This document shows positions 189-10,290 of a stretch of DNA of 10,290 bases, piece by piece; position 1 is the first letter of the stretch, and the number at the start of each line of letters is the position of its first letter. Under the pieces are notes generated by a model. It saw only the letters and a program-made list of their open reading frames with translations. It was not told the DNA's origin and searched no databases. Source of the stretch: a virus (taxonomy: Duplodnaviria > Heunggongvirae > Uroviricota > Caudoviricetes); the IMG/VR virus record IMGVR_UViG_2778261009_000001, positions 1 through 10,290 of that record; one strand, written 5' to 3'. Position numbers and translations under genes: made by a program.

Positions 189-6789
<6,601 letters not shown>

Positions 6790-6790
<1 letters not shown>

Positions 6791-7227
6791 TGCGAACTTC
6801 AGACTACACAATACGGAAATTTTTGATTAATAATCTCAATACTTTGGTAAATCTTCAATATCCATCGAAAGCAACGGTAGACGACAAACCAATGTTATAC
6901 ATCGGTGACAGTACTGTAACACGTTCACGCATTCAAAAAGCAAATACATTAATTAATGGTCAATTAATACCAAGTGAGATTAATTATCTCTGTGAATTTA
7001 GAGTGGACTTTGTAGCAGTAGGTGAAAATTATAAACTTGCATCTGATGAAATTAGTAAAGTACTTGATGCAATCTATGCAAGTGGTTTTATTAATGAATT
7101 GAACAAACTACTTCCAATGGATGTTTTCAATGTTGTTCTGGAAGAGAGCTTAATGACTACCCAGGCCGAAGCAACTAATACGATGTATGTGCATACACAA
7201 ACTATATCTTTTAGCTATGGGGAATAA
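6790..7227 (+). CDS. Tail terminator protein, lambda gpU-like (putative)
   Basis: 145-aa ORF starting in a TAATG stop/start overlap (6788-6792). Size, position just before the tube gene and loose block similarity to lambda gpU (N-terminal helix, CEFRVDFVAVG, C-terminal HTQTISFSYGE vs ADLTYVITYEM). RBS AAGGA at 6779-6783. Confidence 0.45.
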
Positions 7228-7230
7228 TTT

Positions 7231-8913
7231 ATGGCTTTTATTACTAACAACACAAGTGTATGGATTAACACCGACACATTAAACAGTGATCCCAAATCTA
7301 AGGGATTTAAAGAAGTACCAGAATTAAGCGGATTCCCTTCATTCGGTCACAGTACTGAAACCCTTGCCATTGAAACATATGACTCTGAATACATCGAAAA
7401 GGTAGTAGGTAATAGCACCTATGGCGATGTCACTATTACGGTTAACTGGGTTCCATCAAAACATAAGTTTCTCGATGACATCGTAAAAAGTCGCCAATTA
7501 GTACAAATGAAGGTAGAGATCCCCGATGAAGGACAGAATGACCTTACGGTTAACTATGCACTTTATAATGGTTATCTGGCTTCTGTATCTACCAGTGGTG
7601 ATTATGATTCTGTTACTTCCCGTTCCTATGTATTCACCCCAAACGAACAACTTTCTGCGGGTATTCTTGACAGTACGATAGTCCCTCTAAATCGCGGAGA
7701 CTGGGGCGTAGGTGCAAACGGTATTGAGTTTCCAAGTTATCAGGGGCGTGATGGTAACGCTTTTATTAAGATCCCAGGTGCAGGTTCACCAACAGGGACA
7801 GATGTACTTGGTATTAATAACCTTGATTCTAACTTTGGTACACAACTGGTTATCAGTAAGACAGGTACGCCAATAATTAACGTGCGTAACTATGGTGCAT
7901 CTATGGGGGCATGGTACAAGGTCTATACCAGTGCTGATAAACCTACACTGGCAGAACTGGGTGCTGCATCAAGTGCATCTCTTGCAGACTACGTACCGAT
8001 TACCCGTACCATCAATAGCAAACCACTAACTGGTAATATTACACTACTGGCTTCTGATATCGCTGATGTATACAGTAAGACGTATATAGATCAGAACGTA
8101 GTCCCAAAAGTATTCCAGTTAAACGGTCATGCACTATCCGGTACGGCATTAAACTTAGTTGCCGCAGATATTCTTGATGTGTATTCACAGACTCAGGTTG
8201 ATACGTCATTTGTAAAAAAAACAACTACTGTTAACGGTTTAAGCCTTTCCCAGAATATAACACTGACAGCCGCACAACTCCCAGACATGGCGAGTATTGT
8301 TTTTACTAATAACACATATGTACCAAAAACATACTTAATCAACAATAAGCCATTAACAGGAACTAACATTCAATTAGTTGCTGCTGATATTCCTGATGTG
8401 TACTCACGTACTCAGTCAAATGATCTATTTGCACTACGTATCACCACTATTAACGGGTATGCTCTTAACAGCAATATAGTACTGAATTTTGATGATGTAG
8501 GAACATATTCAAAGAAACAGATCGATGACAAAGACAAGGTACTAAAGGAAGAGATTGATACGAAGGTAACAATTGTAGATGATATTCTTAAACTAAATAC
8601 CCTTGTAAATAATTCATTAGAAATAGATTTGAGTGATAGTAAAACTACATTCACAGTGACTCTATCACAACCAACGTCAAACTTCTCTGTACTAAATGCA
8701 AGTGGTAATGACAAAAAGAGTCAAACATTTCAGGTGCTTATTAAACAGGGTACAGGGGCAAATAAAATATCCTGGCCTACAAACATTTTATGGTCTTATG
8801 GGCGTGTTCCAGTATTAACCTTTACAAAAGATTCTACTGATGTATTTCAGTTTGTCACAGTAGACGGGGGTAGTACTTGGTACGGCTCTCTACTAATGGC
8901 AGATATGAAATAA
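7231..8913 (+). CDS. Tail tube protein (lambda gpV-like N-terminal domain) with C-terminal extension carrying phage tail-fibre repeats
   Basis: N-terminal ~150 aa align by eye with lambda gpV ([29 protein letters not shown] vs [46 protein letters not shown] and YNGYLASVS vs YKIRFPNG and FRGWVSSIG). Residues ~257-432 hold five fibre-type repeats, followed by a ~120-aa C-terminal domain. RBS GGGGA at 7218-7222. Confidence 0.6.
   Translation: [560 protein letters not shown]
7999..8526 (+). repeat. Five tandem protein-level phage tail-fibre repeat units (~37 aa each) inside the 7231-8913 CDS
   Basis: Units [66 protein letters not shown] (degenerate), [48 protein letters not shown]. The DNA copies are diverged (GATGTATACAGTAAG, GATGTGTATTCACAG, GATGTGTACTCACGT), so this is ancient repetition, not a recent duplication. 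Confidence 0.65.
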
Positions 8914-10214
8914 TGAAACCACACAATATAGATAATGCATATCAAATGATCGAAGGTCAGTTTAAGTTCTTGGCACGTAATACTGGCCTTACAACAAATA
9001 ATAAGACACAGCACTACGTATTAAACCCGGATAATGTACTTGCAAATAACCGTCACTTTATTGCAGAAACTGGATGGGAAGCACAGCCGGAAGGTGACGC
9101 AACTACAGAAGGTCAAAGCCTCCAGATTCTGGGGGCAATATATGTGTATCAGGCAACTAAAGACCCTTTCTATCTACAGAAGGCAAAAGAGTACTTTAAT
9201 GCATATCACAAGGCGTTCTATCGTGGTGCAGCATTTCCAGATCCACCGAGTTCATCACTACGCTGTAACTGGATTTGTAATGGAAAGGCTCCAGTACTGG
9301 CACACTACCCATTAGATCCCGAATATCCGACGCATGGTGGATTTAAAGGGACACTATTCACATGGGCTAATGGCCTTACAAAGATCCCACATGGTGCTCC
9401 ACACTGGGGTGAATACCTCGATGCAGTATGGTTTGCCTTCCCTAAGCGTGCGGGACTTGGTTGGAATCAGGTTAACGCAACCGCTTATATGTGGCTTACC
9501 AATGAAGACTCAATAGACTGGGACACAAAAGCACCAACCTATGACGTCGAATGGATCATTGATCGTACCGGACGTAAGGTAGACTCAAACGGCACAGTAC
9601 TGCAATCCGGTCTTACAGGTCAGGAAGGTACAGTACAGTTAAAGAATAAAACCATTACTGGTGAATATCGTTTTAACTATGCAACCCGAAACCCTGTAGA
9701 ACATGGCGGGTATATGTTCAAGCGTAATGAACGCTGGCATAACCGACCTGTACACGTACCGATTGATAACTATGGTTCTTTGGACTTCTCTGATAATGCA
9801 TCAGATGCCGAATTATGGTTTTGTCAGGCAGCCAAGTTACTTTGGGATATTACAGGAGAACGCCAGTATTATCTTGCGTGGCAATGTGCACTATTAACCT
9901 GTTATGGTTATTCAGATATTGACAAGTACGATATGTTCTTTCGTAAATCTACTATTGCCGTAACACCTTTTACTGATGGTATTTCATACGACTACTTCTA
10001 CCCAAGTGAGCAAGTAGCATCATATTCCCGTGATGCACAGGGTTATATTGTAATAAATCAAAGTGCATCCGCACAGACGATGTTAGAACAACAATCAATC
10101 TGGTTTAAATTCAATAATAACTCAAAATTTCACATTGAATATGGTGGTGTTGATAATACCAGTACTGAACCGCCCCGGGAATCCTGGAGACTAAACTTCC
10201 TGAGAAAGAGGTAA
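8913..10214 (+). CDS. Hypothetical aromatic-rich protein, possibly tail-associated and carbohydrate-binding; native 3' end removed by IS insertion
   Basis: ORF translationally coupled to the preceding gene through TAATG at 8911-8915 (a TTG at 8877 is an alternative start). Trp/Tyr-rich with helix-pair motifs (ILGAIYVYQATKDPFYLQKAKEYFNAY, WFCQAAKLLWDITGERQYYLAWQ). The last ~16 codons (EPPRESWRLNFLRKR) are read from the IS terminal repeat, so the native C-terminus is missing beyond about 10165. Confidence 0.5.
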   Translation: MKPHNIDNAYQMIEGQFKFLARNTGLTTNNKTQHYVLNPDNVLANNRHFIAETGWEAQPEGDATTEGQSLQILGAIYVYQATKDPFYLQKAKEYFNAYHKAFYRGAAFPDPPSSSLRCNWICNGKAPVLAHYPLDPEYPTHGGFKGTLFTWANGLTKIPHGAPHWGEYLDAVWFAFPKRAGLGWNQVNATAYMWLTNEDSIDWDTKAPTYDVEWIIDRTGRKVDSNGTVLQSGLTGQEGTVQLKNKTITGEYRFNYATRNPVEHGGYMFKRNERWHNRPVHVPIDNYGSLDFSDNASDAELWFCQAAKLLWDITGERQYYLAWQCALLTCYGYSDIDKYDMFFRKSTIAVTPFTDGISYDYFYPSEQVASYSRDAQGYIVINQSASAQTMLEQQSIWFKFNNNSKFHIEYGGVDNTSTEPPRESWRLNFLRKR

Positions 10215-10290
10215 ACAGGATGACTAAAAATACTCGTTTTTCCCCCGAAGTCCGTCAACGGGCAGTCCGTATGGTTCTGGAAAGTCAGGA
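10166..10290 (+). mobile_element. IS3-family insertion sequence, IS629/IS1203-like, left end (partial, continues beyond the window)
   Basis: Terminal sequence TGAACCGCCCCGGGAATCCTGGAGAC starts with the TG typical of IS3-family inverted repeats and is followed by the orfA start. The encoded N-terminus MTKNTRFSPEVRQRAVRMVLESQ matches my recollection of IS629/IS1203 OrfA. Not checked against a database. Confidence 0.8.
10220..10290 (+). CDS. IS3-family transposase OrfA, N-terminal fragment (partial at window end)
   Basis: ATG at 10220 preceded by GAGG at 10208-10211. Translation MTKNTRFSPEVRQRAVRMVLESQ runs to the window edge. Confidence 0.8.
   Translation, partial: MTKNTRFSPEVRQRAVRMVLESQ

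Follow-up and report, generated by a model that had tools for sequence, protein, structure and literature searches.

The 10,290-bp window analysed here (IMG/VR record IMGVR_UViG_2778261009_000001) is the left arm of a low-GC, lambda-like prophage and corresponds to the entire draft contig NMAY01000058.1 (assembly GCA_002536795.1), which ends 125 nucleotides (nt) into an insertion sequence (IS). Its last phage open reading frame (ORF), located at 8913..10165 on the + strand and referred to below as the target gene, is probably a copy, truncated by the IS, of a glycosidase-like six-hairpin protein that is associated with the virion tail and works with a small anchoring partner. As judged from sequence comparison, the intact protein belongs to the family formed by phi92 gp141, rV5 gp42 and PVP-SE1 gp50 (PHROG 2871).

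The target gene directly follows a 560-amino acid (aa) ORF (7231..8913, + strand), the TAA stop codon of which (8911-8913) shares the A at 8913 with the ATG of the target gene (8913-8915). The TAATG stop/start overlap between fibre gene and target gene reported in the preliminary description was thereby recovered by direct sequence reading (8911..8915, + strand). The ORF listing allowed extension of the target frame upstream to a TTG at 8877; the ATG is the start used by RefSeq for this gene in three Escherichia coli genomes. The reading frame displayed 433 open codons and ended with a stop codon at 10212-10214. Alignment with the alleles of E. coli FDN-24 and N61, both intact at this position, revealed identity through 10167 and full divergence beyond, and the foreign DNA after the breakpoint opened with TGAACCGCCCCGGG. 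Since the dinucleotide TG at 10166-10167 is assignable to either partner, the last unambiguous phage base was placed at 10165. The break occurred after codon 418, the native sequence from codon 419 on containing GCAATGTCAGTATCTGCT, so that the ORF is composed of 418 native codons and 15 IS-encoded codons (EPPRESWRLNFLRKR), the latter provided together with the stop by IS bases 10166-10214. The loss of the true C-terminus to the IS, with a break at 10165/10166, had been correctly deduced in the preliminary description.

What remains of the gene are the N-terminal 417-418 codons of a 952-aa protein, i.e. the 5' 44 % of a full-length gene of ~950 residues. With its 418 native codons before the IS, the window copy does not reach the length expected of a complete family ORF (~900-1000 aa); it is a family member by descent but almost certainly a pseudogene, because the insertion takes away over half of the barrel described below. 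The 417-aa fragment was rich in aromatic residues (3.4 % W, 6.7 % Y and 5.3 % F) as compared with the other eight proteins of the window taken together (1.1 %, 3.1 % and 3.7 %, respectively), in agreement with the Trp/Tyr richness noted earlier.

The full-length protein matched PHROG 2871 ('tail protein') over residues 2-950 (E = 0, 1206 bits), spanning positions 116-1041 of the profile. Among phage records the family was detected by tblastn only: a megablast search of 50,697 phage records with the ORF gave no match, the prophage being without close sequenced phage relative, while tblastn retrieved 528 records, 520 of them with full-length homologues. Identities amounted to 53-54 % for phi92 gp141 and relatives, 40-42 % for Klebsiella, Salmonella (Rosemountvirus), Cronobacter and Pseudomonas phages, 38-39 % for SPN3US-like and Erwinia jumbo phages and Kolesnikvirus, and 30-32 % for rV5-like and Vibrio phages. 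Homologues were carried by myo-, jumbo, podo- and siphophages. An exhaustive profile search among 1.84 billion proteins identified 384 family representatives at 50 % identity, which designates a family of modest size, phage-associated in the inspected phage records and prophages. Larger multi-domain versions also exist, as some metagenomic members were ~1,600 aa long, part of them with an extra PF21722 domain, and as the PHROG profile extends over 1,456 positions. In every phage inspected, the homologues were located within tail or baseplate modules. This is the opposite of what the preliminary description had named as evidence against a tail role, namely intact homologues never located in such modules.

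Little is added by published annotations. A review table lists phi92 gp141 among tail fibres and tailspikes as 'glycosidase' (PMC5380687), and the protein was counted as one of four phi92 tail fibres (PMC10269720). Mass spectrometry of rV5 virions revealed both gp42, a 'putative tail protein', and gp43, which has 222 aa and a P22-tailspike-like N-terminus (PMC3606486). Proteins 042 and 043 of phage FV3 are annotated as similar to rV5 proteins; according to gene order and sizes, 042 would correspond to gp42 and 043 to gp43. By analogy with rV5 gp42, a ~31 %-identical homologue, the intact target protein may be incorporated into virions. A lateral tail fibre with sugar deacetylase from the BASEL collection, shared with N4 gp64, was also considered and turned out to be a different gene devoid of BLASTP similarity.

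The fold was predicted with AlphaFold2 for a 99 %-identical 952-aa protein, using a 38-sequence alignment (pLDDT 88.9, pTM 0.84). Predicted helices (residues 6-22, 65-102, 297-334, 731-752, 796-840, 863-896 and 931-950) alternated with beta-rich insertions. According to this model, the intact protein is predicted to form a six-hairpin, (alpha/alpha)6 glycosidase-like barrel, whose helices are drawn from both chain ends (residues 6-102 and 297-334, plus 719-950) and which carries two beta-sandwich insertions resembling carbohydrate-binding modules (CBM), at 121-258 and 357-678. Foldseek matched the beta parts with CBM22, CBM11 and CBM6-like modules. The alpha/alpha-toroid fold with carbohydrate-active or -binding character, advanced as a speculation in the preliminary description, is now a confident prediction on the strength of the model and of these CBM-like matches. 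The window fragment holds barrel helices 1-5, the first beta insertion and the first ~60 residues of the second one; because the barrel is built from both chain ends, the 418-residue fragment would be unable to form the toroid alone. Identity with the six-hairpin glycoside hydrolases (GH) GH8-like CPF_2247 (3REN), YteR/GH105, GH88, GH76 and GH48 was just 7-12 %, and the target family differs from these enzymes by a barrel split by two large beta insertions. Sequence searches of the PDB, either with the single protein or with the 38-sequence profile, did not reveal any solved relative (best E-value with the profile 0.15).

Nineteen members, 34-62 % identical, shared the invariant residues D62, E66, Q68, D298, E300, D340, R344, R373, D550, D674, W766, R768, R799, W911 and E936. 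Five of them (D62, E66, D298, E300 and E936) were located at the N-termini of predicted helices. In six-hairpin enzymes, catalytic residues are found at the N-termini of barrel helices. Judged by predicted helix boundaries, these invariant residues may include a catalytic acid/base pair.

The partner gene (7231..8913) encodes a tube-fibre fusion. Residues 3-140 of the 560-aa protein form a tail-tube domain matching PHROG 158 (major tail protein, E = 1e-19), and the protein displayed 28 % identity (E = 2e-16) with the prophage's own 158-aa tube protein, encoded outside the window. This domain is followed, at residues ~240-430, by five tail-fibre repeats of the form (I/V)NGxxLxGxxxLxAxDI, read from the translation, and residues 405-558 matched tail-fibre PHROGs 7760 and 9017. 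The C-terminal domain (residues ~455-558) is of the phi92 gp140 type: residues 459-557 (8605..8901, + strand) were 44 % identical to the C-terminus of phi92 gp140 (E = 1e-28). It is proposed here to serve the downstream protein as a docking or partner module. Fusions of 560-563 aa were widespread in Enterobacter, Cronobacter and Klebsiella prophages, and the 560-aa protein likewise in the genomes of these genera and of Pantoea.

The same ~100-aa domain terminated the directly upstream gene in all 12 phage lineages sampled, as well as in the E. coli and Enterobacter prophages. In FV3, A24, SPFM4, PSA28, Rouille, zoltan and KLB28, the upstream gene product matched this region with E-values of 6e-21 to 3e-10. 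A domain hidden Markov model (HMM) built from these sequences was tried on four lineages outside the training set (Vibrio D532, Erwinia Asesino, Vibrio BX-1 and Salmonella SD-2_S15), where it returned E-values of 1e-33 to 9e-30. Six-frame scans gave exactly one domain match per scanned locus, which in every case fell at the C-terminus of the ORF immediately upstream, and the gene boundaries overlapped or nearly abutted (phi92, zoltan, Rouille and others). The coupling to a fibre gene, likened in the preliminary description to fibre/adhesin or fibre/assembly-factor pairs, is supported by this adjacency in 12 out of 12 lineages and by these overlapping or abutting boundaries. The N-termini of the partners varied in type and length, the partner proteins ranging from 117 to 560 aa. 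The shortest, from Vibrio phage BX-1 (Ackermannviridae; locus 2115-2468), was essentially the domain alone, with neither fibre shaft nor obvious anchor, which suggests that the gp140-like domain belongs to the large protein's complex as a subunit and is more than a fibre tip. As a side observation, this would give a single siphophage a pair of tube paralogues, of which one bears a fibre; trimeric fibres would then be carried by a hexameric tube ring.

The target gene was rare in E. coli, being carried by only three of 5,426 complete genomes. An uninterrupted allele and its downstream neighbours, the recovery of which had been advised in the preliminary description, were found in E. coli FDN-24: the allele is 2,859 nt long, encodes 952 aa (WP_215254545.1) and was 100 % identical over the shared part. 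The N61 allele was broken farther downstream, near residues 787-797, by a different IS3-family element (N61 locus 17392-18554) and kept its 3' remainder. The target gene was therefore hit by two independent IS insertions among four E. coli copies. The FDN-24 prophage itself displayed a split large terminase gene (locus 5637-7380) and an IS3-family element in the gene for a 145-aa protein (locus 11815-13043); all E. coli copies of this rare prophage were damaged, each at a different site. Close homologues (~76 %) were far more frequent in Enterobacter, Cronobacter and Klebsiella than they were in E. coli. If the pair is the universal plug-in cassette tentatively considered below, the repeated IS hits in E. 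coli could be a sign of relaxed or negative selection acting on a module adapted to Enterobacter or Cronobacter glycans.

The gene order in the window was as follows: small terminase, gpA-type large terminase, 179-aa head-tail joining protein, lambda-family portal, protease-capsid fusion, 98-aa head-closure-like protein, 145-aa protein without family match, 560-aa protein and target gene. Downstream of the target gene, FDN-24 encodes a tail tube protein (158 aa), two small ORFs that occupy the chaperone position, a tape measure protein (753 aa) and a Dit-like protein, then a protein matching a baseplate-hub N-terminal domain below threshold, a DUF6950 protein and a tip protein of 1,185 aa. Enterobacter bugandensis displayed this architecture as well, its two proteins measuring 560 and 940 aa. 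In FDN-24, N61 and Enterobacter, the target gene was located between the head-completion genes and those for tube, chaperone, tape measure, Dit and tip. As the architecture repeats in Enterobacter and the 560-aa protein is widespread, the pair is a regular part of the prophage tail module. The neighbouring genes matched lambda-type TerL, portal, tube and tip families. The target protein had no Pfam or NCBIfam match and hence none to lambda V, G, T, H, M, L, K, I, J or Stf/Tfa, which agrees with its earlier description as foreign to the lambda tail genes; it is not part of the lambda-type TerL/portal/V/tape measure/J set that surrounds it. GC content ranged from 36 to 44 % across the window, being highest in the target gene (43.8 %). 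The E. coli chromosome, at ~51 %, lies far above these values.

These data can be assembled in a model in which the pair would act as a portable two-gene cassette, the second gene encoding the large protein. The first gene would always end with the ~100-aa gp140-like beta-sandwich domain, while its variable N-terminus would plug the pair into a given virion: by a baseplate or tailspike-type N-terminus in myo- and podophages, and, in the present prophage lineage, by a tail-tube paralogue joined to a fibre shaft with repeats. Both genes would be translated together and the large protein would dock on the gp140-like domain, to be carried on the tail as a glycan-binding and probably glycan-cleaving host-recognition module, as predicted from the modelled fold. 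Comparable arrangements would be those of fibre-tip adhesins or tailspikes. By inserting after codon 418, the IS3-family element would part helices 1-5 from the remaining barrel helices and leave the prophage, if otherwise viable, without this module.

Several points weigh against this view of the protein as a docked glycosidase. No Pfam match at the curated threshold was obtained for the CAZy families GH8, GH48, GH76, GH88/105 and GH127, sub-threshold matches to GH76 or GH127 being limited to two to four of the 38 members. Profile comparisons by hhalign were negative for both E. coli BcsZ (GH8) and Erwinia phage S6 gp094 (GH48, probability 0.5 %). GH8 had been suspected from the TTEGQS and ASDAE motifs and was rejected; given the negative BcsZ comparison, the likeness of these motifs to GH8 is not evidence. 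The (alpha/alpha)6 fold is encountered as well in epimerases, terpene cyclases and non-enzymatic proteins, and the invariant acidic residues were positioned by predicted helix boundaries and not by coordinates at the barrel mouth. Docking is proposed from gene linkage, and among 120 homologues none displayed the gp140-like domain fused to the large protein. In the literature examined, enzymatic, binding or other biochemical data were found for no family member. Neither did searches on six-hairpin proteins in phage tail fibres and on gp140/gp141 return anything relevant. Finally, a 2026 cryo-electron microscopy study of phi92 did not locate gp141 in the virion and described gp140 solely as a predicted fibre similar to the capsid spike of Pa223.

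Alternatively, the protein could be a non-catalytic adhesin or structural protein, whose barrel and beta-sandwiches would bind a host surface glycan or protein, or build part of the periphery of the fibre or baseplate, without cleavage. This alternative is regarded as rather unlikely. A role as fibre assembly factor or chaperone, folding or attaching the upstream fibre and taking no part in host recognition by the mature virion, is improbable. The position directly downstream of a fibre gene with translational coupling would suit it, lambda Tfa and T4 gp38 being likewise situated downstream of a fibre gene, and one record names a homologue 'tail formation protein'. However, in most phages the protein, with its 950 aa, is four to eight times the size of its partner, virions of rV5 were found to contain the homologue, and no fibre chaperone with a glycosidase-like and CBM-like architecture is known to us. 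The refuting scenario of the preliminary description, a non-structural cargo gene of the prophage (moron, defence or metabolic) merely lying beside the fibre gene, is largely refuted and highly improbable: its GC content, a little higher than the 36-40 % found elsewhere in the window, and the three independent IS hits in E. coli prophage copies (two of them in the target gene), which indicate that it is dispensable for the lysogen, are outweighed by its presence in strictly lytic phages of many families, where it always occupies a tail or baseplate module together with that partner domain, by the rV5 homologue being a virion protein, and by the lack, in Pfam and NCBIfam, of a metabolic signature or one of PADLOC type (PADLOC itself was not searched).

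By all sequence and context features examined other than intactness, the target gene is a broken member of a known, biochemically uncharacterised family; its predicted fold places it in the six-hairpin glycosidase superfamily. The closest parallels are phi92 gp141, PVP-SE1 gp50 and rV5 gp42, with homology over the full length (54 % to phi92 gp141 and ~31 % to rV5-type proteins) and a shared length class. Their partners, phi92 gp140 and rV5 gp43, possess the same upstream domain (44 % to the gp140 C-terminus and 40 % to FV3 043) in similarly abutting genes. In contrast, the partner is anchored here by a siphophage tail-tube paralogue and a repeat shaft of ~300 aa instead of a 60-120-aa N-terminus of baseplate or tailspike type; and, unlike the large lytic myophages phi92 and rV5, the present element is a temperate lambda-like prophage whose copy was cut by an IS.

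Erwinia phage S6, a podophage using cellulose as first receptor, encodes the tail-region cellulases gp094 (GH48) and gp095 (GH5) (PMC9544554). It provides a precedent for an (alpha/alpha)6-type glycoside hydrolase directed from the tail-fibre region against a surface polysaccharide; however, gp094 shares no detectable sequence relationship with the target protein and the partner genes differ. In branched tailspike/adaptor systems, the gp10-like XD domains of CBA120 TSP2/TSP4 displayed a low-Z likeness, restricted to a small beta-sandwich. Adaptor proteins of K1-5/SP6 and the fibre-tip adhesin gp38 of T2 are further arrangements to which the pair may be compared.

Somewhat new are the strict two-gene cassette, a description of which was not found in the literature examined, and its fusion to a tube paralogue in a siphophage. 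It is conceivable, as a tentative extension, that the gp140-like domain and the gp141-like protein constitute a universal plug-in cassette spread across myo-, podo-, sipho- and jumbo phages by anchor swap, tube-ring-anchored enzyme fibres being one instance. A glycan-cleaving enzyme would in that case be displayed on long fibres emanating from the siphophage tail-tube ring, not from the tip or baseplate. We know of no described siphophage with such fibres. The family occurs in hundreds of phages, including therapeutic candidates and models such as phi92, rV5-like phages, PVP-SE1, SPN3US-like jumbo phages and Erwinia biocontrol phages. The split six-hairpin glycosidase-like barrel, the invariant acidic residues and the strict linkage to a partner domain offer testable hypotheses, for which WP_215254545.1 may serve as intact reference allele, the window itself holding an IS-disrupted pseudogene in a decaying low-GC prophage.

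The breakpoint alignment and copy counts identified bases 10166..10290 (+ strand) as the left end of an IS3-family insertion sequence, with its terminal repeat (given above as the opening of the foreign DNA) and an orfA start at 10220 (MTKNTRFSPEVRQRAVRMVLESQ). These 125 nt were found with 100 % identity at 23,338 places in 3,606 of the 5,426 complete E. coli genomes, the multicopy matches being annotated as 'IS3 family transposase', which assigns the flanking element to this family. The element may be IS629/IS1203. An origin from an O157 Stx phage, guessed from the IS629-like end, was rejected in view of the low incidence of the target gene in E. coli genomes. The exact phage/IS junction gave no match in one-genome-per-species contigs. 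A contig stop inside a multicopy IS is typical of an assembly break at a repeat. Because the contig stops within such a repeat, loss of the 3' 534 codons from the genome is not demonstrated; the missing part probably sits on another contig, as the N61 allele, which is also IS-interrupted, retains its 3' remainder.

Other regions of the prophage displayed additional features. The 617-aa ORF at 4630-6483 fuses a prohead protease (S78) and an HK97-type capsid protein, joined by a linker of acidic tandem repeats (5143-5404) with 48- and 27-nt periods, E/S-rich units and a perfect (TGAAGC)x7 tract; this linker resembles a built-in scaffold or delta-domain. The ORFs for the small and the large terminase (228..785 and 700..2616) overlap by 86 nt (700-785) in different frames, and the true TerL start may lie farther downstream than 700. 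Just upstream of the terminase genes, the N61 prophage carried an SMODS nucleotidyltransferase gene and a SLATT-domain gene (locus 4996-6278), resembling a defence pair of the cyclic oligonucleotide-based antiphage signalling system (CBASS) type, and unrelated hypothetical genes occupied this position in FDN-24.

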